A DNA stretch of 49,462 nucleotides from Alphaproteobacteria bacterium (GCA_045126755.1 JBGVOY010000139.1:1-49462); one strand, 5' to 3'. Shown: positions 25,665 through 39,223, counted from the stretch's first letter. A program made the numbers and translations. Notes: generated by a model from the sequence alone, not told the origin.

Positions 25665-26633
25665 CTAGGTAACTTCAGTAATTGCACGCAAGTTACCATC
25701 ACGATTGATTTGAACAACCCTTAATTTATGGCGCATTTCCTCAATCGTTTTTACTCTGTCAATAGTAGGATATGTGTGCAAAATACGGTCTGTAAATGCC
25801 TGATATGCAGCTTCTGAACTTTCAGCGTGAATTGTTGCCAAGCAGTTATCGTGACCTGAACCCATCAACTCCCATAATGCACCGGCATTAGATGTTGAAA
25901 TCTCACCTCCGATAATGGCATCAGGTGTAAAACGAACCACCAAGTCAATAATTTTTGCATAATCCATTTCGTTAGTTTGCTCGGTACGAGATAATGTTAA
26001 ATGCACTCTGTTCGGATGCGGAACCAAAAGTTCTCGGGTATCCTCTATGGTAAGCACTCTTTTATGAATATCTAAAATTTTTAACAAGTTATTCAAAAAA
26101 GTTGTTTTACCGGTTGAGGTTGCACCACTTACCAAAATATGATCGCCCCTTTTTATACTCAATAACAATCTTTCATACGGATCTTCAGGATCTTTAATAT
26201 CTTTCAGTGGGTTTATCTTATGCAAAGCTTTTCCTTGTGTTAATCCGTAATCGGATAATCCGAATGCAACGTCATCACTGTGAATACGAATTGTTAAAGC
26301 AACACCGCCTGTTAAATCATCATTATCATACATAACGTTACGGCCTGCAATCGCCGAAAAACGGTGGTCTCCCGGTATAGTTGCATAAACAACCGGAGAA
26401 CCTTGAACAGGGTCAAACGGAAGTTCGTATGTATTTGCAATAATATACAGCAAATCTGTTAAATATTCTTTGGAAAGTTTTTCATCTTTATACATTACCC
26501 ACGGATATGCTCTCTTGCCGCGTAGCCTTAACCATATCTGCCCTGCTTTATTGATGGCTACTTCCTCAATATTTTCCTGATTATACCAATATGATAATGG
26601 CCGTAAAACTGATTCTAATACCGTAAAACTCAT
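25665..26633 (-). CDS. virB11: T4SS ATPase VirB11
   Basis: 322 aa. N-terminal ...EEVAINKAGQIWLRL, Walker A SGATSTGKTTFLN, Asp box LTIEDTRE, His box GHDNCLATIHA. Last gene of the operon. Confidence 0.9.
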   Translation of the reverse strand: MSFTVLESVLRPLSYWYNQENIEEVAINKAGQIWLRLRGKRAYPWVMYKDEKLSKEYLTDLLYIIANTYELPFDPVQGSPVVYATIPGDHRFSAIAGRNVMYDNDDLTGGVALTIRIHSDDVAFGLSDYGLTQGKALHKINPLKDIKDPEDPYERLLLSIKRGDHILVSGATSTGKTTFLNNLLKILDIHKRVLTIEDTRELLVPHPNRVHLTLSRTEQTNEMDYAKIIDLVVRFTPDAIIGGEISTSNAGALWELMGSGHDNCLATIHAESSEAAYQAFTDRILHTYPTIDRVKTIEEMRHKLRVVQINRDGNLRAITEVT

Positions 26634-26644
26634 ATCTTTATCCT

Positions 26645-29600
26645 TTAGAATAATGCTCCGGATTGTTGGTTATATGTCGATGCCGTAGCGCCTGTTGACG
26701 GAGGCGGAGGTGGTGCTCCGTTGTATATCGGAGCACTTCTTGAAGGCGTCTTTTTCTTAGCCGGAGCTTCATCGATTAAACCACCTGACGGTTGAGCCTT
26801 TTCATCTTCGGCACCCATTACGTGAACGGAACCGCCTCCTGAATTTGCCTTATCATCGCCATCTTTACCTTGAACATTACCTTCTCTACCGTTAATCAAG
26901 ACACCGGAAGGATCATCTGATTCCTTTTCATCTTCCAATTCACGGGCAGGTGTTCTTATCCATAAATCTACTTTCGGATATATTATAATACGTGTTCCGG
27001 CAGGCACATAAGCAACTGCAGAAATATCTGTTTTATCTTTCAATATCTGTTGGAAAATATTGTTCATACCGTCAACAAAGTTATCTCTGGCTTCTTCTGC
27101 AGCCTGAGCTTTAGCATTTTGAACAGAGTTACCGTTTGAATCGGTTGTCGTTTCACCTGCTGCTGCTACATAAGTAATTGCACTTGTAAGAGATGTGGTA
27201 ACAAGAGGCAACGTGTATTTCTTAAGTAATTGTTCATCAATATAGCCAAGAGCTCCTGATTTACCTTGAGCATCACCCGTAACCGCATTGGCAAACTGGA
27301 ATGCGGAGCCATCGGGCCTTATCAAACGCTCCCAAGTAATACTTACCCTTACGGAACTTCCGGAGCTTCCGCCTCCAAATCCGCCCATAGAGCCCATTAC
27401 CCGGCTTCCTGCAGGAATTACTATATTTCTGCCGACTTCCGCATAAATATTTCTTTCAACGATAGCCGTAACAGGAACGCCATCGGCTCCTGACATAATT
27501 GTTCTTGCCAGCACTGCAGGAATAGGTTTATCGGCTAATATCATTTCGCTCATATCAACACGCCAAGAAGATATATCTCGAGCTACACCTTCCCAGTGCG
27601 TAGCCGTGCCGTCATACGATTCTTTATTTATTTTTGTAGATACTTTACTAACCGAAAACTCTTCTCGGCGTAAATTGTGCGCAGCACTGATTCCGTATGC
27701 GCGAATAGGATCATATCTTTCACCGGGACCATATCCGCCTCCGGGGCCTAAATTACTTACCTTATTACCTTCTCCGTATGCTTCGCCGGCACCCATAACA
27801 CCCGCCGGAACAAACATTGTTTCGGCAGAAGTTTTTTTAATTTCTTCCACTCCGGCCAATTCTCCGTAGTTATCTATAATAAGTCCGTCATTAGTTCTTT
27901 TACCTATAACGTTTCCGTTTACGTCGATAACATCATTGTTTTCTAAAATATTACCCAGAAAATTCCCATCAGGGTTAATAGCAATACCTATCACTTGCAT
28001 TTTTTTATCTTTTACTTGAGGTTCTTCTGTTATTTGTTCGGGAATTTCAATTTCACCAACCTGAATCTGTTCCTCTTCTTCAACATTTTTAGGTTTTTTA
28101 ATTATAATCGGTTTTCTTGTATTGTAATATTGCAAATAACGTGCTTTTGCCAATAATTTTCCGTTTTCATCTCTAACTTCACCGCTTCCGGATACTTTAC
28201 CTGCAACTGCATATTCGTTATCAACGACATCTCCGTCTATTAAGAGTTCTCCTATTACTTTATTATTTTTATCGCGAATAAAATAGTCTCTTGAACCACG
28301 TCCGATTATTTCATAATTCTTGTTTACCAAAAATCCTCTATCGGCTGTTCCGAGCGTTGTGCCGGCAAACGATGTTACGGAACCTGCCTTTGTAAGATAA
28401 CCGATAGCAAAATTATCTTTATCATATACGTAAACATCGTATAAAGCATATCCCAATTCTTTTCTTCCGGAAACTACCAATCCGTCGTAATTTACTTTTG
28501 CCAATACTTCATTTTTATCGTTAACAACTTCAGCCTTCTGGTTAACTCTACCCATAAAATTATTTTCGTTATCAAAAGCAAAACGATATTTAAAAGCAAC
28601 ACCTAATATTTTTTCGGCATCTTCAGATACGACCGTTCCGTCAGGTCTTACATATCCTATAACTTCGGAATTTTCATTTATAACCTTACCCGTTGTTAAT
28701 ATTCTGCCGATAATAACATTCTTAAAATTCATTACCGGTCCGGGTTCAACAACAGAAGCCTGAAAAACATTATCGTCGTTATATAAACGGCCATCCGATT
28801 TAACACAGCCCAAATCACGATTTTGATAGTCAATAGCTCTGCTTACACCATTGATGTTTGCAATAAGTTTTCCGTCAAAGTTAATCAATGAGCCTTTTTT
28901 AGGAGCAAAACCAACCATTGTTCCTACATCACTGATAACTTGATTGTTTGCTAATATCTTGCCTAAAACAACATCTCTGCCGTTTCGCACATCGCCTTTA
29001 GGGCTTACAACACCGATATATTCGCATACATTATTCACAACACTGTTAAAATCAGCCGTTTGACCGATAACGGAACCGTCGATTCCGCTGACTAAATTAT
29101 TGCTGATAGCTTTACCTATGATATTTCCGGCATAATTTTTTACTTCTCCGTTATGTTCCGCATAACCTAACATATTACCGTTAAAACCGATTACCATAAA
29201 TGCCCTGCCTATATTACCCGATACAGGCATCATATTTTCTGATACAGACTGAGTAGTTTCCACAACATCATATTCCGGAACTATTTTTGCCGTTATATTA
29301 CCTTTTCCATCCGTAATAAAATTGTTTTGCGCCAAAAACGGCATAATTTTACTGTCTAGCCCTATTGCATAATAAATATCGGATAATTGAGTTGAATATA
29401 TGTTATTATCAGCATCAATAACTTCTCCATGCTGTGTAATTTTTAAACCCAATTCTGTCGGAACACCGTTTATTTTTCCATCAATACCCACATATCCTTT
29501 AGGCATACCTGCCTGTGTATATGTATCGGATAATTCCAGTGTATTACCAATCAGCACGCTATCTGAAGAAAAAACATATCCGAAAGGAGATACTTTATAA

Positions 29601-30841
29601 CTGACATTCGCAGATGAAAAATCTGCCCCTGTTCCTTTAAGCCCGAGAACATCATTTGATGTTGTAATAATCAATGATGTATCTGCTCCGGCTCCCAATA
29701 TTCTGCCTATATTATCATAAACATAGTTTCCTTTTGTGTAGCCCATAAGTGTTCCCGACATAGAAATCGCAGAGCCGTTACTAAGCGCCATAGCAGTTAA
29801 ATTACCTAAGTAGTCAAAAACAGGACCAGTATATGATAATTGTCCCACAATTTTTCCGGTATTATCATAAACCATGGCTCTTGGCCCTACATAGCCTATG
29901 ATATCCTCTGAGCGAGCGACTTTACCTTCGGGCATAATTCGGCCTAAATATTTACCGTTAAAATCATTTGCAGTTGCTGCTATATCAACAAAAAAACCGA
30001 TAACTTCGTTGTTTGCATTTACTATTTTATTATCAGCACGAAGCCTGCCCACAACATTACCCTGATTTATAACTTCTCCGTTGTATGTTATAAGACCTAA
30101 ATAATTACCTACATTATCAAATGCGTATCCGCTAATTACCGTCCTTCCGATAACTTTATCGGTATTATCATACACATATCCGTTTGCGTGAACACTACCT
30201 ATAGTTTTAGTATCAAAATCGGTTACTTTGCCGCCGGGGGCGATACTACCTATAAATTCTCCCGTTGAAGATACTACCATTTTAGATGAAATTAAACGTC
30301 CGTCCAGAGTATATCTGCTTCCGCTGTTTTTATAAGCATACCCTGACGGAGATACAAAACCTATGTTCTGTCCGTCTATACTGACATATAAACCATCACC
30401 GGTCAAACGTCCCACCGTTTTTCCCGAATCATTATAAACTAAGCCCGGATATAAGACAGAACCTAAAATATTATATGAGTCATCTACAACCAAAGCATTA
30501 GGAAGTGTCTTACCTATTATTTTTCCAGAAGGTAAGCGAACCGTTCCGTCATTGTTTACTTTTCCCAACAATTTATTGTCATTTCCTATAACAACACCTT
30601 GAGGAACAACACCACCTATTATGTTACCTTCCGTATTGACTATAAAACTGTCTGCCGTAACGTTTCCGATTATTTGATTATCAAGCCCTACAACAGAACC
30701 ATCCGGTATAACCTTTCCGATAACTTTACCGTTAAAATCTATGGCAGTTATTTCGTTTGCGTAAACATACTTTGCCGTAACAATCATTACGGTTAATAAA
30801 ACTAAAAAAGCTCTAAATATTTTATTTAATGTTTTTTGCAC
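26645..30841 (-). CDS. virB10: Giant VirB10 (1398 aa): signal-like N-terminus, about 870 aa of 17-residue repeats, TrbI/VirB10 core, Pro-rich C-terminal tail
   Basis: The C-terminal ~220 aa match the VirB10/TrbI core pattern: DKPIPAVLARTIMSGADGVPVTAIVERNIYAEVGRNIVIPAGSRVMGS...ITWERLIRPDGSAFQFANAVTGDAQGKSGALGYIDEQL...VPAGTRIIIYPKVDLW. GTG start 1 nt after the upstream stop. Sits in the position virB9-X-virB10-virB11. Confidence 0.85.
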   Translation of the reverse strand: MQKTLNKIFRAFLVLLTVMIVTAKYVYANEITAIDFNGKVIGKVIPDGSVVGLDNQIIGNVTADSFIVNTEGNIIGGVVPQGVVIGNDNKLLGKVNNDGTVRLPSGKIIGKTLPNALVVDDSYNILGSVLYPGLVYNDSGKTVGRLTGDGLYVSIDGQNIGFVSPSGYAYKNSGSRYTLDGRLISSKMVVSSTGEFIGSIAPGGKVTDFDTKTIGSVHANGYVYDNTDKVIGRTVISGYAFDNVGNYLGLITYNGEVINQGNVVGRLRADNKIVNANNEVIGFFVDIAATANDFNGKYLGRIMPEGKVARSEDIIGYVGPRAMVYDNTGKIVGQLSYTGPVFDYLGNLTAMALSNGSAISMSGTLMGYTKGNYVYDNIGRILGAGADTSLIITTSNDVLGLKGTGADFSSANVSYKVSPFGYVFSSDSVLIGNTLELSDTYTQAGMPKGYVGIDGKINGVPTELGLKITQHGEVIDADNNIYSTQLSDIYYAIGLDSKIMPFLAQNNFITDGKGNITAKIVPEYDVVETTQSVSENMMPVSGNIGRAFMVIGFNGNMLGYAEHNGEVKNYAGNIIGKAISNNLVSGIDGSVIGQTADFNSVVNNVCEYIGVVSPKGDVRNGRDVVLGKILANNQVISDVGTMVGFAPKKGSLINFDGKLIANINGVSRAIDYQNRDLGCVKSDGRLYNDDNVFQASVVEPGPVMNFKNVIIGRILTTGKVINENSEVIGYVRPDGTVVSEDAEKILGVAFKYRFAFDNENNFMGRVNQKAEVVNDKNEVLAKVNYDGLVVSGRKELGYALYDVYVYDKDNFAIGYLTKAGSVTSFAGTTLGTADRGFLVNKNYEIIGRGSRDYFIRDKNNKVIGELLIDGDVVDNEYAVAGKVSGSGEVRDENGKLLAKARYLQYYNTRKPIIIKKPKNVEEEEQIQVGEIEIPEQITEEPQVKDKKMQVIGIAINPDGNFLGNILENNDVIDVNGNVIGKRTNDGLIIDNYGELAGVEEIKKTSAETMFVPAGVMGAGEAYGEGNKVSNLGPGGGYGPGERYDPIRAYGISAAHNLRREEFSVSKVSTKINKESYDGTATHWEGVARDISSWRVDMSEMILADKPIPAVLARTIMSGADGVPVTAIVERNIYAEVGRNIVIPAGSRVMGSMGGFGGGSSGSSVRVSITWERLIRPDGSAFQFANAVTGDAQGKSGALGYIDEQLLKKYTLPLVTTSLTSAITYVAAAGETTTDSNGNSVQNAKAQAAEEARDNFVDGMNNIFQQILKDKTDISAVAYVPAGTRIIIYPKVDLWIRTPARELEDEKESDDPSGVLINGREGNVQGKDGDDKANSGGGSVHVMGAEDEKAQPSGGLIDEAPAKKKTPSRSAPIYNGAPPPPPSTGATASTYNQQSGALF
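28150..30750 (-). repeat. Coding repeat array in virB10 (about 51-bp / 17-aa period, degenerate)
   Basis: Recurrent x-D-G-x-V-V-x-x-x-G-N-I-I-G-x-V units, e.g. GKVIGKVIPDGSVVGLDNQIIGNVTADSFIVNTEGNIIGGV. Boundaries estimated by eye. Confidence 0.7.
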
Positions 30842-30842
30842 T

Positions 30843-33800
30843 TTAGTTCCTCCGATTTTGAGCTACTTCTTGTAAAGCATATCCCACAACTTGTTTATCT
30901 ATATTAACAAACGAGCCGTTACTTTTCAAATATCCTATTTCTTTTCCGCTTGAACCTATAACTTTACCATCTGATGATAAATATCCTAAATATTGACCAT
31001 CGCTTGATAATACTGCCGTTCCGATTTTAAATATCTGCCCGATAATATTGTTCTGATTATCTATAGCTAAACCGCCGGAAAGTGTTCTGCCTATTATACT
31101 GTTATCCGACGATCTGATACTTCCGTCAAATGCAACAAATCCGGCTACTTTATCCTGATTATCAATCACGATATCACCGCTTACAACTTCACCGATAATT
31201 TTACCGTCAGTGCTGCTTACTTTACCGTCTGAATGAACATTTCCGATTATTACGTTTTTAGTGTTTATAACAGCTCCTTCCGGAAGAACCGAACCGATTA
31301 CGTTACCGCCAAAATCAACCACCGTTCCACGTTTTAATACACTCAAATTTTTATCGGTAGAGCCTCCGGGTAAAACAAAAGTAACAAGACGCCCTTTCAA
31401 ATCTGAAACCTCGCCTCTTTCATTTGTATAACCCTTGTATGCGCCGAACAAATCTATAACCGTATTTTGTTCTGTTTGTTCACCCAATATTTTACCGGTT
31501 TTATCCAAAATTAAACCGTTTAACGCATATAAAGCAACTTCTTGACCGAGATCTGTCAGCACTCTTCCTGACGGAGTTACATATCCGAGATATGAACCGT
31601 CATAACCTATTGCCGCACCCGTTTTCACAACGGAACCTACATATTTCCCTTTATCATTAAACCAACGCCCTTGTGTATCGACTGTTCCCAAATCATCCCC
31701 AAATCGATTAACCACACGGCCGTCAAAGTTTACAAAACCTTGCGCATTACCGTTTATATCGGTAACATATCCGGTCGGCATCATTTTACCTGCAATAGCG
31801 CCATAAAAGCTTAATCCGTCGCCATATATTTTATCAACCGGCATTCCGCTATTGTCATAAACTTTTCCGTCAGCAAATATTCTGCCGATTTCTTCGCCGG
31901 ATGAGTTTATTATCCTATTAAATTCAGGTAAAGCTACTCCGATAATGCGGTTATTTTCGCTAACTATATATCTGTGAAGCAACAATTTTGCTCCGGGATA
32001 ATCTTTCAGTGTAAATGTTCCGTCAGACTTAAACGTAGTAAGCAAATTACCTTTCATATCAAACACATAAAAGTTATTGTTGATTTTTCCCAGATATTTA
32101 CCTTCGGAACTATAAATTTCTTTATCTTCGGACACACAACCTACTCCGTTGCCGTTTGATGCTACCACTTGTCCGTAAGGTGATACAGTGCCTAATTTTA
32201 TACCGTTTGCCATATATCCCGTTTTATACTCTGCGACATATCCGATAACATCACCTTGTTCATTTAACACCGTGCCATCCGGATTAGTGCAACCGACATA
32301 ACTTCTGTTATTGCTTACAACGCCTTGTTCGTTGGCATAACCTAAATAATTACATTTATTATCAAATACCCTACCCGTCTTAACCGGATGCCCGACATAT
32401 TTTCCCATAGCATCGTATATTCCGCCGTCAAGACGTATTCTATATGGTAGAACCTGATTATCTTTTACTATTTTACCGGTTTTATCCAGTATACCAATGT
32501 TATTACATCCCCAACCTACTATAACTCCGCCGGACACTCCTTTTCCTATATATCTGGCCCCGCTTTTATCTTTTATCAATCCGTTGGGAAGTATTCTGCC
32601 GACAACTATACCTCTTTCAGATGTTACATCTCCGTTTTCGGCAATTATACCCATAACATCACCTGTAGGAGTAACGGGAACAAGCTCTGTTTTAACAACA
32701 CTTCCTATTGAAGATTTATCATAAACCACAACCCTTCCGTTTTCATCAACTCTGCCGATAATATTTCCCTGCCCGTCAACAGCATTGCCGTTTCCGTCGA
32801 CGTATCCGACTACATTTCCGTTTTCATCAACAATTACATTCACATAATCACCGGCTTTACCTATAACTCTTCCTGCTGCATCGACAATCGTTCCGTCTTC
32901 TTGCATTTTACCGATTACATTGCCCGCAAAATCGATTACGTTACCGTTTTCATCCACATACCCGATTACATTTCCGTTATTATCATAAGCAAGACGTCTG
33001 GAATCTCCTATTTTACCGTTTGTTGCAACAATACTACCGTCTTCTTTGGCATGTCCGATAACTTTGCCGTTAGAAGACACTACATCTTTTTCATGATTAA
33101 CATATCCGATTACATTTCCGTTTTCATCAACTGCGACATCAGCACTTCCGCCCAATTTAGCATAGATTATTCCGTCAGCCCCAATCAGAGTGCCGTCTTC
33201 TTGTATTTGTCCCAGAAGTGTGCCATCCATATTGAATATACTTCCGTCTTCTTGCATTCTGCCTAAAAGTGTTCCGTCAGCATTTAAAACTGCTTTTTCT
33301 TCACTAACATTACCGATTTCTTTACCGCTTTTATCGACAACAGTTCCATCCGGTAAGGCCATCCCTATCAGCTTACCGTTTTCGTCAACGACCGTCCCGT
33401 CAGGCAAGGCCATTCCTACCAACTTACCGCTTTCATCATAAACTAAATTATTTTCACTAATGGTCCCCATTAGCTTACCGTCTGCGCCGACTAAATCTTT
33501 TTCACCAAAAACTTTTCCTTCTACATTTCCATTTGCATCAACAACGGAATTCTTTTCATATTTTTTACCGATTATGTTACCGTCTACATCGACAACAGTG
33601 CCGTCTTTATTTGCTTTATACAATAAATTACCGGTTTTATCAACCACTTCTCCGTCTTTAGTTTTTGCACCGATGAAATTGCCGTTTGCATCAAAAACAG
33701 CTTTATCCGTACTTTTTTTACCTACAATATTACCATTTTTATCTATAAGATTACCTTCAGCATCGGTCTGATACAATTTGTTGTGATTTAAGTCTACTAT

Positions 33801-35639
33801 TGTTCCGTCAGGTAAGGCCATTCCTATTAACTTACCTTCATTGTCATAAACAGGTTTGCTTTCACCAACTTTACCTATTACATTACCGTTTGCATCGACA
33901 ACAGTTCCGTCAGGCATAGCTTTTCCGATTACATTACCGTTTTCATCAACAACCGTTCCGTCAGGAAGAACTCGTCCTATAACATTACCGTTTTCATCAT
34001 AAACTAATTTTTCTTCGCCGACAAAACCAAGCGAACTTCCATCTTCATTATAGAGGACGTTTCCATCGCCTAACACACCTAAAACATTGCCGTTTTCATC
34101 AACGTATGTTTCATTTTCGACAACGCTGCCTATTAACTGTCCGTCAAAAGTAAGCGCATTACCGGTTTCATCGATATAACCGATAACTTTACCGTCATCA
34201 TCATAGACAAGTTTTTTCTCTTCACCTATGCGACCGATTTGTTTTTCGGATAGAGCAAAAGCTTCACCGTTTTCATCGACATAACCTACAATGTTTCCGT
34301 TTTCATCAACGATGGAATTGTCCGGCATCACTACACCTAAAACATTTCCTTCATCATCTGTTACCGTGCGTCCTGATTTGCTGACGAAACCGATTACATT
34401 GCCGTTCATATCGACAACTTCACCGTTTTCATTTAATCTGCCTAAAACATTGCCTTCAAAATCAACAACTGTTCCGTCATCTAAGACACGTCCTATAACG
34501 TTACCGTTTTCATCATACACAAAACCGGCGTCGACCGCTTTACCGATTACATTACCGTTTTCATCAACAACTGTTCCGTCAGGAAGAACTTTACCTATAA
34601 CATTTCCTTCAAAATCAATAGCTTTTCCATCGGGTGTAACATAACCGATAATATTTCCGCTTTCATCGAAAATAAGTTTTTTGTTACCGGCAACACCTAT
34701 AATATTTCCGTCTTTATCGACAACCAACCCGTCAGCATTCACGCGTCCGATAATATTACCGTCTTCATCACGCACATAACCTTCATCATCGATATATCCC
34801 AAAACTTTACCGTCAGGACCATAAGCAACTCTCAGCTTTGAAGTATCTGCCTGAACTTTACCGACGACATTACCGTTTTCATCTATTACGTTGCCGTTTG
34901 CATCTATTGTGCCTATGACGTTACCGTTTTCATCAACCGCTTTACCATCTGCCGTAACTCTGCCTATGATGGCACCTTCGCTATTTTTAATAACTTTTTC
35001 ACCTGCAGATGAAGCCCCTGCTCCTGAAGAAGTTTCGCAATAGTTACAGTCTTCTTTTACTACGGCTCTTCCTTCTACCGGAACTTTTTGAGCTTTTGCA
35101 TTGGCAGCACTGACATTTGTTTCGTGCCAAGATACAATGTAATTGTTTTGAACATTACCTGAAACAACCGGCGCCCATTTCATTGTTACGTTACAGGTTT
35201 GATTACCTCTTAACTCGGCTCCTGTACACTCATCAACAAAAGTAAAACCGTCAAAAGGAGGTTCAGCCAGCTTAACCGACACAATTCGTATAGACGCTTT
35301 GCCGTTTGTTCCTATTGTCAAAACATTTATAGCTTCAGTTCCTAAAACAACTTGCCCCATATTTATCGGATCGGGAGTAGTTGTTATAGGGATTTCTTGT
35401 TCAACAACATCGTCAAATTCTATTCCGTTCATCAGAGGAGATGTATCCTCCTCTATTCCCAAAACATCATCATCTTCGGTAAACACAACTTCTTGCTGTT
35501 CTATCATGCCCGAACCGCTTGAAAACAATAAAATAAGTCCGAACAAAAACACTACAAACGAGGTTATACCGACAATTAAGATGATACGGTTTGTCTTACG
35601 AACATAACGTTCCGATGATGTTAAAACTTCTTTGCTCAT
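30843..35639 (-). CDS. Giant T4SS-embedded repeat protein (1598 aa): cytoplasmic tail, TM anchor, beta-sandwich-like domain, about 1380 aa of 17-residue repeats; no named family
   Basis: N-terminus ...RKTNRIILIVGITSFVVFLFGLILLF (TM). Residues ~85-175, MGQVVLGTEAINVLTIGTNGKASIRIVSVKLAEPPFDGFTFVDECTGAELRGNQTCNVTMKWAPVVSGN, follow the ASH/HYDIN ('choice-of-anchor D') beta-sandwich pattern. Repeats of IGKVLPDGTVVDENGNV run from there to the C-terminus. ATGA overlap with the virB9 stop. Confidence 0.8.
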   Translation of the reverse strand: MSKEVLTSSERYVRKTNRIILIVGITSFVVFLFGLILLFSSGSGMIEQQEVVFTEDDDVLGIEEDTSPLMNGIEFDDVVEQEIPITTTPDPINMGQVVLGTEAINVLTIGTNGKASIRIVSVKLAEPPFDGFTFVDECTGAELRGNQTCNVTMKWAPVVSGNVQNNYIVSWHETNVSAANAKAQKVPVEGRAVVKEDCNYCETSSGAGASSAGEKVIKNSEGAIIGRVTADGKAVDENGNVIGTIDANGNVIDENGNVVGKVQADTSKLRVAYGPDGKVLGYIDDEGYVRDEDGNIIGRVNADGLVVDKDGNIIGVAGNKKLIFDESGNIIGYVTPDGKAIDFEGNVIGKVLPDGTVVDENGNVIGKAVDAGFVYDENGNVIGRVLDDGTVVDFEGNVLGRLNENGEVVDMNGNVIGFVSKSGRTVTDDEGNVLGVVMPDNSIVDENGNIVGYVDENGEAFALSEKQIGRIGEEKKLVYDDDGKVIGYIDETGNALTFDGQLIGSVVENETYVDENGNVLGVLGDGNVLYNEDGSSLGFVGEEKLVYDENGNVIGRVLPDGTVVDENGNVIGKAMPDGTVVDANGNVIGKVGESKPVYDNEGKLIGMALPDGTIVDLNHNKLYQTDAEGNLIDKNGNIVGKKSTDKAVFDANGNFIGAKTKDGEVVDKTGNLLYKANKDGTVVDVDGNIIGKKYEKNSVVDANGNVEGKVFGEKDLVGADGKLMGTISENNLVYDESGKLVGMALPDGTVVDENGKLIGMALPDGTVVDKSGKEIGNVSEEKAVLNADGTLLGRMQEDGSIFNMDGTLLGQIQEDGTLIGADGIIYAKLGGSADVAVDENGNVIGYVNHEKDVVSSNGKVIGHAKEDGSIVATNGKIGDSRRLAYDNNGNVIGYVDENGNVIDFAGNVIGKMQEDGTIVDAAGRVIGKAGDYVNVIVDENGNVVGYVDGNGNAVDGQGNIIGRVDENGRVVVYDKSSIGSVVKTELVPVTPTGDVMGIIAENGDVTSERGIVVGRILPNGLIKDKSGARYIGKGVSGGVIVGWGCNNIGILDKTGKIVKDNQVLPYRIRLDGGIYDAMGKYVGHPVKTGRVFDNKCNYLGYANEQGVVSNNRSYVGCTNPDGTVLNEQGDVIGYVAEYKTGYMANGIKLGTVSPYGQVVASNGNGVGCVSEDKEIYSSEGKYLGKINNNFYVFDMKGNLLTTFKSDGTFTLKDYPGAKLLLHRYIVSENNRIIGVALPEFNRIINSSGEEIGRIFADGKVYDNSGMPVDKIYGDGLSFYGAIAGKMMPTGYVTDINGNAQGFVNFDGRVVNRFGDDLGTVDTQGRWFNDKGKYVGSVVKTGAAIGYDGSYLGYVTPSGRVLTDLGQEVALYALNGLILDKTGKILGEQTEQNTVIDLFGAYKGYTNERGEVSDLKGRLVTFVLPGGSTDKNLSVLKRGTVVDFGGNVIGSVLPEGAVINTKNVIIGNVHSDGKVSSTDGKIIGEVVSGDIVIDNQDKVAGFVAFDGSIRSSDNSIIGRTLSGGLAIDNQNNIIGQIFKIGTAVLSSDGQYLGYLSSDGKVIGSSGKEIGYLKSNGSFVNIDKQVVGYALQEVAQNRRN
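30870..35003 (-). repeat. Coding repeat array (51-bp / 17-aa period, roughly 80 units by length)
   Basis: Spacing between successive (I/V/L)G dipeptides is 17 aa in the regular stretches, e.g. IGYVTPDGKAIDFEGNV|IGKVLPDGTVVDENGNV|IGKAVDAGFVYDENGNV. The C-terminal third is more degenerate. Confidence 0.75.
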
Positions 35640-37354
35640 TGCACTCTTACCACGCTACAGAATACCCCATTACGTCCCAAATGACCGCAAATTTCATCGC
35701 CGACATCTATTGATTGAACAGGACCTATTCTTAAATGGAACAACTCTTTGCCTTGTCCGTCGGCAGGTGCATCAACGGAATAAAACGGTTTATACTCACC
35801 TAAGATAGAATTATATCTGGTAGATAATTCATACCATAAATCTTCTAAGTTACTGACATTGGCATCTGTTCCCAATTCAACGGAAATACTTGCAGAATCT
35901 TCATTTTCGAAACCTTTACCGAAACGATATCCGTTTAAAGCTCCGTTATTTGCAAATCCTTGCATTAAAGCACTTTGTTTTGTATTGCCGCCCATTCCGG
36001 ATACAAAAGAGCCTGAAGCGTTACTATTATTTCCGCCCTTTGCATATTCCGGAATCAGCAATTCGCCGTTAGGTCCTAATTTTACCGTATATTCACCGAC
36101 TAAACTTTCCGAACCGCCACGAGATGATGCTAAATAACCATTTTGTGCATTATTCTGTGCGTTGGAAACATTTTCTGCTCCGGTGCCTAATGTTATTGAG
36201 CTGGAAATAGGGGCTACATTTACCGGAGCCGGTTCTTCTTTTTTGTTAATATCTATAAACTCAAAACCTTGAACAGAACTTTCTCCGCTTGGAGTTTTTC
36301 CGCCCGGAAATGCGAAAGGCACATCCCAGTCATTTGTTTCTGCCATAGGAGCAAACTCTGTTCCTTGGTCATCGGAACGGCGCAATTTCAAACAAACAAT
36401 TCTTTTACCGTTACGAAGAACCATATCACCGACACCTTCTACGATAATCAAACGATTATCCGGACCTGCCGTGCGGAAACCGACCGGAGTTTCAGCTCTT
36501 TCAACAATCAAAGTAACTATAGGTCTTTGCACCATACTTAAAGCTCTGTCACCGAAATCGATGTATGTAAAGATGTCATCACGCCACACTCTCTCCGGCG
36601 CTATAACAACATCATCGGGGTTTGGAACATATACTTCAACATCAAAACGCAACTTTGTCGGATCAAGAGGAATGCTCTTAATCCAATCTTCTTTTTGATT
36701 TCTTTTTGTGAAAGTAGCGTCTACATTGTTTTTACTGCTTTTAACGGCTCCTCCGGATGTTCCCGTTCTGGAAGAACCGCCGGCCACTCCCGACATAGAG
36801 CCGTCTCCATTAACATCATCGACAACTTCGATATCTATCACTGAGTTTGTTAAACGCTCCGTATTAAAACTTTCACTCTTGGTGTAAAAAACATACTTAT
36901 TACCGGAACGACCGAAAACTATTATGTTTGTATCAAGACCGACTTTACCGCCCTGAGGATATAACAAAAGTGTATTCGGCCCCGAAATTTCAGCAGTAAA
37001 GTTTTTACTGTCACCGATATAAACATCTTCTAAAAGTTCCCATTCAGGAAAGTTTATCAAAGTAAGCATTCCTTCTCTTAAACGAACAGGCAACACCAAA
37101 TCAGGCGACCAATAATATTTTGAATAAGCAGGCTTAGTCTGTCCTTCACCCAAATTTTGCAAAGGATCTAACCACGCACTTTGAGTCATACCTATTGACC
37201 CAAATCCTAAATAATCTAAATTTTGAGGCGCATATACACCCTGCTGATTATTAGCCACACTGTCAAGGCTATCAATAGTAGCCTGAGCATTCGCACCGGT
37301 GGCGGTTAAAACCAACGCCATAACAGAGAATATTTTAGTCGCTATATTTTTCAT
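35636..37354 (-). CDS. virB9: VirB9 (572 aa) with Gly/Ser/Asn-rich linkers and a SPOR-like C-terminal domain
   Basis: Signal peptide MKNIATKIFSVMALVLTATGANA. VirB9 NTD pattern (LVLPVRLREGMLTLINFPEWELLEDVYIGDSKNF...TNIIVFGRSGNKYVFY) and CTD pattern (PERVWRDDIFTYIDFGDRALSMVQRPIVTL...GFRTAGPDNRLIIVEGVGDMVLRNGKRIVCL). For the tail, see findings. Confidence 0.85.
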   Translation of the reverse strand: MKNIATKIFSVMALVLTATGANAQATIDSLDSVANNQQGVYAPQNLDYLGFGSIGMTQSAWLDPLQNLGEGQTKPAYSKYYWSPDLVLPVRLREGMLTLINFPEWELLEDVYIGDSKNFTAEISGPNTLLLYPQGGKVGLDTNIIVFGRSGNKYVFYTKSESFNTERLTNSVIDIEVVDDVNGDGSMSGVAGGSSRTGTSGGAVKSSKNNVDATFTKRNQKEDWIKSIPLDPTKLRFDVEVYVPNPDDVVIAPERVWRDDIFTYIDFGDRALSMVQRPIVTLIVERAETPVGFRTAGPDNRLIIVEGVGDMVLRNGKRIVCLKLRRSDDQGTEFAPMAETNDWDVPFAFPGGKTPSGESSVQGFEFIDINKKEEPAPVNVAPISSSITLGTGAENVSNAQNNAQNGYLASSRGGSESLVGEYTVKLGPNGELLIPEYAKGGNNSNASGSFVSGMGGNTKQSALMQGFANNGALNGYRFGKGFENEDSASISVELGTDANVSNLEDLWYELSTRYNSILGEYKPFYSVDAPADGQGKELFHLRIGPVQSIDVGDEICGHLGRNGVFCSVVRVQ

Positions 37355-37369
37355 TTTACATTACACCTT

Positions 37370-38119
37370 TTATTCTGGTTTATTACGAGAAACATTATAT
37401 CTGCCAACGGTAAAACCTATCGGATTATTAAGTCTTTCGCCATATTTAACATTTTTCTTGCGGTAACCTACTCGTAATGACACCGTCCAATATTCCACTT
37501 TAGGCGCAGGAGATGACGGATACATATCTCTTGTTTCGTATTCAACTTGCCATATACCATTACCGAGATCGTTAACTGTCATAATTCTGACAGAACGTAC
37601 CAAACCTTTCTTTTTAATAGTATCCAAAGCCTTTTTTGCCGTTTTTTCAATAAATGTCTGATACACTGCAGATGTTGACATCTCTTGTATCGGACCACCC
37701 GGAAGCCAACGAGATTCCATTTCTTTGACATTACTTGAAAAAGCACTACGCAGAAGCACATATTCACGAACAAACGTTTCCGTTATTTCTTTTCTGCTTT
37801 CCATATTTGAAAGAGGCTGAATATTGTATACCTGTTCTTGCTTATTTTCAAAAGTCAATATAAACGACTCAAGACGATATAAAGGTAAAAGCTGTCCTAT
37901 TGCCAACATAAGAACAATATTACAACATAAGCTCACGGCAACAACTACGGCAAACGCACGTGCTGTCCACAAATATCTGCGTTCACCCGCATTGACGATA
38001 ACATCATCATTATCTCTTCTGCCTGCAGGTGCATTTGCCCTTCTGATATTTTGACGGGGGGCACCTTGGCGACCTGCTATCAACCTTTGCTGTGTATTAT
38101 TGCCTAAGCGTTCAACCAT
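37370..38119 (-). CDS. virB8: VirB8 (copy 2, Arg-rich N-terminal tail)
   Basis: 249 aa. Bitopic: TM AFAVVVAVSLCCNIVLMLAIGQL. Periplasmic NTF2-like domain with ...FVREYVLLRSAF... and the signature NNPIGFTVGRY near the C-terminus. Confidence 0.85.
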   Translation of the reverse strand: MVERLGNNTQQRLIAGRQGAPRQNIRRANAPAGRRDNDDVIVNAGERRYLWTARAFAVVVAVSLCCNIVLMLAIGQLLPLYRLESFILTFENKQEQVYNIQPLSNMESRKEITETFVREYVLLRSAFSSNVKEMESRWLPGGPIQEMSTSAVYQTFIEKTAKKALDTIKKKGLVRSVRIMTVNDLGNGIWQVEYETRDMYPSSPAPKVEYWTVSLRVGYRKKNVKYGERLNNPIGFTVGRYNVSRNKPE

Positions 38120-38126
38120 ATTGCAC

Positions 38127-38315
38127 CTATATTGTTGCTACAAACCAATCAGGAAGTGTGTGCGGAAGTTCAACTTCAATACATGCACACGGCGATAATT
38201 TAAGTTCGTTTACATCTTTACCAATACCCACAGGTTCCGGTTCATAATATGTACCGAACATACCACACGCAGATAAAAGTATAAGTGCAATCAATAAAAT
38301 TATTTTTTTATACAT
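38127..38315 (-). CDS. virB7: VirB7-like small lipoprotein
   Basis: 62 aa. Lipobox LLSAC. Additional Cys (SPCAC). Located between the two virB8 genes and 7 nt upstream of virB8 copy 2. Assigned by size, lipobox and position only. Confidence 0.5.
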   Translation of the reverse strand: MYKKIILLIALILLSACGMFGTYYEPEPVGIGKDVNELKLSPCACIEVELPHTLPDWFVATI

Positions 38316-38464: not shown

Positions 38465-39223
38465 TTAAAGAATTTCAACTTCTGTTTGAGAATATTTAGT
38501 AACCGTAAATCCCAACGGATTCATCAAACGTCTGGATAAAAAATACCTTTCAGGTATAAACGATGCTATCATAGACACAGTCCAATACCTTGTTACAAGC
38601 ACCATTTCGCCTGTTGTTTCATTACGATTCGAAGGTGATAAGTCATAAGTCTTAAAGTCAACTTTCCATAACGGAGATTTTTCTCCTCCGACCTTTCCGA
38701 CAGATATAATATCTACTTCACGTGAAATTTTATCTTTATACAGTTGTTGCAATTTTTGCTCACCGTCCTTAAAAAACTCATTAAAGACAGGTATCGAAGA
38801 TAAATATGAAACCATACCGCCGGCATACCATCTGGTTTGCATCTCTTTTGTATCGTATATAACCGTATTGCGCAAAATAACATATTGCCGTATAAAAAGC
38901 TCCATCATTTGTCTTGAAGACGGCATATCCGTTGATATGGCTTCATATCTTATCATTTCGTCTGAGTTATCTTGCTTGATTATCAAAAACGGCTCTACAT
39001 GAACTTCAGGCGCAAGCTTAAACAACACTAAAGAAGCACTGGTAAAAAACATCAAAGATAACATAGCCAAAAAAGCCATAAATCTTGATAACCAGCAATA
39101 GTAGTGTTCTCTGGCCGATGTTTTGCGAACATAGGTATCGGTTATATAATTTAACTCCACCCTTCTGTTTTGTTCATCGGTTATTGACAACGGTCTGTTA
39201 GTTGCGCCTAATTGATTATTCAT
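38465..39223 (-). CDS. virB8: VirB8 (copy 1)
   Basis: 252 aa. TM FMAFLAMLSLMFFTSASLVLF. Contains FIRQYVILRNTV and MNPLGFTVTKY. AAGGAG SD. Confidence 0.85.
   Translation of the reverse strand: MNNQLGATNRPLSITDEQNRRVELNYITDTYVRKTSAREHYYCWLSRFMAFLAMLSLMFFTSASLVLFKLAPEVHVEPFLIIKQDNSDEMIRYEAISTDMPSSRQMMELFIRQYVILRNTVIYDTKEMQTRWYAGGMVSYLSSIPVFNEFFKDGEQKLQQLYKDKISREVDIISVGKVGGEKSPLWKVDFKTYDLSPSNRNETTGEMVLVTRYWTVSMIASFIPERYFLSRRLMNPLGFTVTKYSQTEVEIL

Follow-up and report, generated by a model that had tools for sequence, protein, structure and literature searches.

A divergent SPOR-family domain at the C terminus of VirB9 in a type IV secretion system of gut-associated Alphaproteobacteria

The 49,462-nt stretch of DNA analyzed here (the window), which is the entire contig C139 (JBGVOY010000139.1:1-49462) of the genome assembly of an Alphaproteobacteria bacterium (GCA_045126755.1; 1.47 Mb in 184 contigs, estimated 100% complete), carries on its minus strand a type IV secretion system (T4SS) gene, virB9-SPOR (35636..37354; 572 residues plus the stop codon), that encodes a VirB9 protein ending in a divergent domain of the SPOR family. 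The gene product serves a distinct, chromosomally encoded T4SS lineage of small-genome, gut-associated Alphaproteobacteria as its VirB9 subunit in the outer-membrane core, and this gene accounts for the only CagX match in the genome (53.9 bits in the genome search). The protein is composed of a Sec-type signal peptide (residues 1-23, MKNIATKIFSVMALVLTATGANA, cleaved before Q; 37286..37354), a VirB9/CagX core comprising an N-terminal β-sandwich and a C-terminal domain (residues 78-322; 36389..37123), a disordered and variable Gly/Asn/Ser-rich linker (residues 330-486; 35897..36367), and the SPOR-family domain (residues 487-572, 86 amino acids; 35639..35896). The signal peptide was read directly from the sequence, with its cleavage site inferred from the A-N-A motif without a computed prediction. 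Judging from sequence and structural models, we assign a probability of about one half to the reading that the VirB9-linked SPOR domains together anchor or position the machine on the cell wall through multivalent, low-affinity contacts.

A SPOR-like domain at the end of VirB9 had been proposed in an earlier note prepared from this DNA, and the open reading frame (ORF), phmmer, hhalign, AlphaFold2 (AF2), and Foldseek all support it; the tail quoted there, the last 83 residues from I490 (codon 35885-35887), reads exactly as given. Searched against a library of 1.84 billion representative proteins, the last 99 residues gave 93 phmmer matches, and 57 of the 59 remote ones are Pfam SPOR proteins, typically with two or three SPOR domains and a best Pfam SPOR E value of 2.5e-34. 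The phmmer E values to genuine SPOR proteins range from 1e-11 to 1e-4. Profile-profile alignment with hhalign of 31 VirB9-linked tails and 23 canonical alphaproteobacterial SPOR domains yielded a probability of 99.55% and an E value of 2.1e-23 over 81 columns. The Pfam SPOR profile (PF05036) aligns to the tail of the window over profile positions 9-76 of 76, with an E value of 0.041 and 14.6 bits (13.8 bits in the genome search) against a gathering score of 21. The profile check suggested in the earlier note is therefore divided in its outcome: the tail of the window does not reach the gathering score, and 7 of 18 nearer, orthologous VirB9-type proteins pass on their own (best E value 5.8e-7). 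Several close homologues also carry precomputed annotations of both PF05036 and PF03524. The profile of the tail family found no SPOR chain in a search of PDB sequences, and the link to solved structures is thus made through the canonical alphaproteobacterial SPOR domains, whose profile finds those of CwlC (E value 7e-4) and FtsN, and through the fold search.

With the family alignment as input, AF2 predicts for the tail the RNP-like fold that the earlier note had anticipated, a four-stranded sheet backed by two helices, with a mean predicted local distance difference test score (pLDDT) of 84.4. The elements follow the order β-α-β-β-α-β (strand 17-24, helix 27-40, strand 49-55, strand 65-71, helix 76-87, strand 94-97). 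The three highest-ranking Foldseek matches in the PDB are the SPOR structures of CwlC (1x60) and RlpA (6i09 and 6i05), with a probability of 1.00 and TM-scores, normalized to the target, of 0.67-0.68; below rank three, the matches are generic ferredoxin-like folds with TM-scores under 0.5. The earlier note had named the lack of a profile match and an unrelated fold as findings that would speak against a SPOR domain; phmmer and hhalign show homology instead, and the best fold matches are SPOR structures. By descent, as traced through sequence comparison, and by predicted fold, the tail is a genuine SPOR domain, albeit a divergent one.

The Pfam CagX/VirB9 profile (PF03524) matches residues 78-322 over profile positions 4-195 of 198, with an E value of 1.6e-13 and 51.4 bits (cut-off of 34.2), and the NCBIfam VirB9 equivalog model, TIGR02781, scores 37.2 bits against a cut-off of 217.7. 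At the level of sequence, the protein is a member of a divergent VirB9 subfamily and not an equivalog of the P-type VirB9 of Agrobacterium. A search of PDB sequences with the full-length family profile gave no match at an E value of 0.01 or below and no VirB9 chain. AF2 gives a poor model of the whole protein (overall pLDDT of 52), in which the N-terminal and SPOR domains fold independently. The N-terminal VirB9 domain (residues 76-177) is modeled as a β-sandwich with a pLDDT of ~80, and a Gly/Ser-rich spacer separates it from the C-terminal VirB9 domain (residues ~225-325), which is conserved and of low confidence in the monomer model. The segment at residues 58-82 (37109-37183, QSAWLDPLQNLGEGQTKPAYSKYYW) is among the most conserved of the protein, with a column conservation of 0.96 and many invariant positions; the Pfam CagX match starts at residue 78 and covers just the final five residues of this segment.

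The linker, put at about 150 residues and described as rich in Gly, Asn, and Ser in the earlier note, measures 157 residues, and these three amino acids make up 36% of it versus 23% of the remaining protein. Across 120 aligned homologues, the linker varies and is interrupted by many gaps, and it is predicted to be disordered (pLDDT of 26-40). The C-terminal 86 residues are conserved as strongly as the VirB9 domains in the same alignment, with column conservation of 0.72-0.96. On the evidence of this alignment, the tail is under strong purifying selection while the linker varies freely. Within the linker, a short motif at residues ~419-437 (36043-36099, GEYTVKLGPNGELLIPEY) is moderately conserved amid variable sequence; it is retained in closer families (e.g., QYDIQVGQSEIVVPRYG) and not in distant ones, and AF2 shows it as disordered. 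This motif could be a short linear binding motif.

Relatives of virB9-SPOR occur in at least 583 species-representative genomes. The best 80 all come from uncultured Alphaproteobacteria of the human, ruminant, rodent, or bird gut, and their alignments all extend through residue 572. When an even sample of 401 alphaproteobacterial genomes was searched for the tail and for CagX, the tail was matched in 26 and CagX in 78, and the two were found together in one open frame of 485-605 residues in 22 genomes of 0.9-2.6 Mb that represent at least 13 GTDB families. The canonical VirB9 proteins of this sample (CagX E values of 1e-45 to 1e-74), with frames of mostly 270-450 residues and a few longer, unchecked ones, show no tail match, which bears out the earlier statement that canonical VirB9 has no SPOR domain. 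Core and tail lie within a single ORF in all 11 loci checked, and the gene order virB8-(virB8)-virB9-SPOR-virB10-virB11 is kept in 16 loci from other families. The fusion of SPOR and VirB9 is ancient. Two database proteins look chimeric: in P0123 (478 residues), the SPOR tail and an incomplete CagX core are combined with a DUF2961 segment, and P0130 (176 residues) has a partial SPOR tail followed by unrelated sequence; both are probably artefacts of assembly or gene calling. In three genomes (G002, G018, and G199), a short canonical-type VirB9 (frames of 292-325 residues) and a SPOR-fused VirB9 are encoded on separate contigs, which points to two distinct T4SS lineages side by side.

A giant VirB10 accompanies the fusion. 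In 14 of the 15 other-family loci with a readable downstream gene, VirB10 reaches 1280-2838 residues, encoded by a single gene or divided among two or three. Most relatives carry the β-flower repeats on the same protein as the VirB10 C-terminal domain; in the window, the gene directly downstream of virB9-SPOR encodes a separate, membrane-anchored β-flower repeat protein of 1598 residues (30843..35639; Pfam Bflower_2, E value 3e-111), which is followed by a 1398-residue VirB10 that combines repeats with a TrbI/VirB10 C-terminal domain (26645..30841; Pfam TrbI, E value 5e-29; NCBIfam ComB10/VirB10). The exception is a locus of a 0.9-Mb lineage (L099, G077:C4, 9463-13526), in which VirB9-SPOR is found with an 843-residue VirB10 that has no detectable β-flower repeats. 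The tail of G077 is more divergent and has a longer insert before strand 3. That G077 keeps the tail without VirB10 repeats implies that the tail arose before VirB10 expanded or has no tie to that expansion, and the proposal that the tail exists only alongside such repeats is weakened by this locus.

The glycan-binding groove of the domain is altered. In crystal structures of the RlpA SPOR domain with glycan, the lactyl carboxylate of denuded N-acetylmuramic acid (MurNAc) receives a hydrogen bond from the side-chain amide of Q270 and is taken up by R302, R309, and R311; A273 touches the glycan with its main chain, and F274 stacks on N-acetylglucosamine (GlcNAc) (PMC6895207). The corresponding residues were counted in an alignment of 179 unique VirB9-linked domains and 66 Pfam-positive canonical SPOR segments. 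At the Q270 position in strand 1 (Q251 in FtsN and Q351 in DamX), Glu is present in 177 and Gln in 1 of the VirB9-linked domains, compared with Gln in 53 and Glu in 7 of the canonical segments; in the protein of the window, this site is occupied by Glu493 (codon 35876..35878), a pairing confirmed by hhalign. At the F274 position at the end of strand 1, the VirB9-linked domains have Asp in 161 of 179 and never an aromatic residue, as opposed to Phe, Tyr, or Trp in 45 of the 66 canonical segments. In the basic patch, Arg542 (codon 35729..35731), which lies within the conserved LRIGP motif and is equivalent to R311 of the RlpA basic patch, is Arg in 179 of 179 (41 of 66 in canonical segments), and the R309 position is His in 161 and Arg in 17 of the VirB9-linked domains versus Arg in 53 of 66. 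The R302 equivalent is not placeable. Both cysteines and a helix-1 Trp are common to VirB9-linked and canonical alphaproteobacterial SPOR domains. The net charge is -6 for the tail of the window and -3.6 on average for the family, with an isoelectric point (pI) of 4.9, whereas canonical alphaproteobacterial SPOR domains average +1.2 with a pI of 7.7.

The earlier note had gone on to propose that the core complex is tethered to the sacculus through the established binding of SPOR domains to denuded glycan, and it is this part that finds no support in the form proposed, given Glu in 177 of 179 domains, a non-aromatic residue at the F274 position in 179 of 179, and the acidity of the domain. With its groove altered, the VirB9-linked domain cannot simply be credited with the established SPOR activity, though the homology is secure. 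The seven ordinary SPOR domains with Glu at the Gln position (in P0161, P0163, P0200, P0203, P0210, and P0211) include four that are the first domain of their protein, and SPOR domains outside T4SSs may include a natural Glu-type subclass.

In T4SS core complexes, VirB9 forms rings of roughly 14 copies just beneath the outer membrane. Because of this copy number, ~14 VirB9-linked SPOR domains per machine would dangle into the periplasm, on tethers of ~157 residues that would be long enough to reach the peptidoglycan layer. Together, the domains would serve to anchor the machine on the sacculus, or to position it there, through multivalent contacts of low affinity. A machine of unusual size, with a giant VirB10 and without a VirB1-type transglycosylase of its own, would be stabilized in this way. 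Tethering to the wall by the VirB9-linked domain is plausible. The mechanism would not be the textbook one, in that the Gln that bonds the lactyl carboxylate is replaced by a fixed Glu, the aromatic residue that stacks on GlcNAc is replaced by Asp, and the domain is acidic; one or two of the basic-patch arginines or histidines and both cysteines are retained. A precedent for an effect of the chemical state of peptidoglycan on T4SS localization is cited in the literature (PMC10838918).

Several observations weigh against a wall anchor. The tail of the window scores below the Pfam SPOR gathering score, and the tail family profile retrieves no SPOR chain from the PDB. The Gln-to-Glu replacement is fixed and the aromatic residue at the F274 position is lost throughout the aligned family, and Q251E is the very substitution that has been used in FtsN to weaken binding to denuded glycan (bioRxiv 10.1101/2024.05.13.594014). 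In addition, an acidic domain is unfavorable for a polyanionic ligand. The changed groove residues and the acidity indicate that the ligand is probably a different wall feature from that of FtsN or RlpA, or that binding is weaker.

The same changes could also be read differently. It is possible, and we consider it tentatively, that the SPOR fold has been repurposed and does not bind peptidoglycan, binding instead a protein partner within the machine (e.g., the β-flower repeats of the giant VirB10 or the VirB5-like exported proteins), assembling with itself into a ring, or binding a glycan other than peptidoglycan. The loss of canonical groove residues and the acidity of the domain would fit such a role, as would the co-occurrence of the giant repeat-bearing VirB10 in 14 of 15 readable loci and a surface that is very strongly conserved throughout, as suits a protein interface. 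G077, however, keeps the domain with an 843-residue VirB10 that has no detectable repeats; the domain has kept the LR(I/V)GP motif, Arg542, and the cysteine pair of wall-binding SPOR domains; and a floppy tether of 157 residues is more typical for reaching a distant layer than for a contact within the complex.

Textbook SPOR function, in which the domain binds amidase-made denuded glycan at the septum and either targets new T4SS cores to the septum and new poles or tethers them there, is unlikely. It draws on the genuine homology and fold, on the invariant Arg542 and the His or Arg at the R309 position, and on an AmiC-type amidase encoded in the genome. Glu may also be tolerated, since 7 of 66 ordinary SPOR domains have it at the Gln site, and in FtsN the septal localization of the isolated SPOR domain is roughly halved, not abolished, by Q251E (bioRxiv 10.1101/2024.05.13.594014), a loss for which fourteen-fold avidity could compensate. 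Against these points stand the acidity of the domain and the fixation of Gln to Glu and Phe to Asp across the family, and the hydrogen bond that the Gln of RlpA gives to the lactyl carboxylate (PMC6895207) cannot come from a carboxylate. From the residues of the groove, denuded-glycan or septal binding of the textbook kind is doubtful. A chance likeness to SPOR, or a non-functional remnant, would agree with the sub-threshold Pfam score and the lack of a PDB SPOR chain among the profile matches, and is contradicted, to the point of being highly improbable, by the hhalign E value of 2e-23, the 57 SPOR proteins among 59 remote phmmer matches, the SPOR structures at the top of the fold search, and conservation that, over at least 13 families, equals that of the VirB9 core.

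The AmiC-type amidase means that denuded glycan can exist in the organism, and the genome also encodes three ordinary SPOR proteins. Recognition of de-N-acetylated, positively charged glycan by a groove containing Glu was considered and set aside, as no CE4 deacetylase (PF01522) was found in this genome, estimated to be 100% complete. The absence of a VirB1 transglycosylase from the window, remarked on in the earlier note, was borne out: no SLT/VirB1-type domain is encoded there, a result that is weak alone because only 18 nt precede virB4 in the window and a virB1 further upstream is possible, and no SLT match was found on the T4SS contigs (up to 337 kb) of five relatives. The sole SLT-domain ORF found in this genome (L005, G000:C159, 1168-1779) encodes a 203-residue secreted protein. 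It was rejected as the missing VirB1 because its gene is located among housekeeping genes on a different contig and because the T4SS contigs of the five relatives have no SLT match. Relatives have a Slt70-like ORF of 580-676 residues, which was not found in this 184-contig assembly.

The remaining genes of the locus are those of a VirB-type system, all on the minus strand. Directly upstream of virB9-SPOR is a virB8 paralogue (37370..38119; Pfam VirB8, E value 7e-22), and a second virB8 paralogue (38465..39223; E value 1.2e-13) is separated from it by an ORF for a 62-residue lipoprotein (38127..38315; lipobox LLSAC), which from its size, lipobox, and position is a candidate VirB7. The operon begins in the window with virB4 (47147..49444; Pfam CagE_TrbE_VirB), followed by four exported proteins without Pfam matches, virB8, the 62-residue lipoprotein, virB8, virB9-SPOR, the β-flower protein, VirB10, and the virB11 ATPase gene (25665..26633; Pfam T2SSE, E value 1.4e-21). 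The stop codon of virB9-SPOR and the ATG of the 1598-residue repeat-protein gene share a 4-nt overlap (35636-35639), which suggests translational coupling of the two genes. At the other end, the contig breaks off 18 nt upstream of virB4 (49445-49462), cutting the operon, so that virB2, virB3, and any other 5' operon genes are missing from the window.

The VirB9-linked domain belongs, by hhalign, to the same family as the SPOR domains (PF05036) of FtsN, DamX, DedD, and RlpA from Escherichia coli and Pseudomonas aeruginosa and of CwlC from Bacillus subtilis, and has the same fold. It shares the R-x-G-P motif with canonical SPOR domains and the helix-1 Trp and two cysteines with those of Alphaproteobacteria. 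The differences are the Glu in place of Gln, the Asp in place of the stacking Phe or Tyr, the acidic rather than neutral or basic character, and the carrier, which is a secretion ring protein here and a division protein, amidase, or lytic transglycosylase for known SPOR domains. Similar to the canonical VirB9, TrbG, TraO, TrwF, and CagX proteins of P-type T4SSs, the virB9-SPOR product has a CagX match, a signal peptide, and a gene located between virB8 and virB10, but it is ~250 residues longer than canonical VirB9 through its linker and SPOR domain.

Trans-envelope machines with a peptidoglycan-binding module of their own are familiar. DotK of the Legionella Dot/Icm system is an OmpA-like peptidoglycan-binding lipoprotein that likewise places a module of this type in a T4SS outer-membrane core, but it has an OmpA-like fold and is a separate lipoprotein of a type IVB system, whereas here a SPOR domain is fused to VirB9 in a type IVA-like one. 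The same principle is seen in the wall anchors TagL/TssL of type VI secretion systems (OmpA-like), TsaP (LysM) and PilQ (AMIN) of type IV pili, and MotB of the flagellum. To our knowledge, none of these proteins uses a SPOR domain or is fused to VirB9, and all but DotK belong to machines other than T4SSs. A full-text literature search found no publication joining "SPOR domain" and VirB9, and no such fusion appeared in the titles or abstract openings of the literature on SPOR and type IV secretion or on VirB9 and peptidoglycan-binding domains.

A T4SS must cross the peptidoglycan, and how minimal VirB-type systems are fixed or positioned in the wall is poorly understood. A domain of the wall-binding type in a 14-fold outer-membrane ring would be a new solution, and the fusion is conserved in hundreds of uncultured species from gut and rumen, which carry a giant VirB10 as well. 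The isolated domain, at only 86 residues, is a direct experimental handle. The fixed Gln-to-Glu replacement is a natural experiment on SPOR specificity and may reveal a second class of ligand for a family so far tied to denuded septal glycan. The Glu-type SPOR domain of VirB9 might, though we hold this to be a speculative step with the odds against it, represent a new functional class that, rather than reading denuded septal glycan, recognizes another wall feature, engages a protein partner such as the giant β-flower VirB10, or builds an extra periplasmic ring. If so, the domain would be one of the structural building blocks of a so far undescribed T4SS architecture with a wide distribution among gut Alphaproteobacteria.

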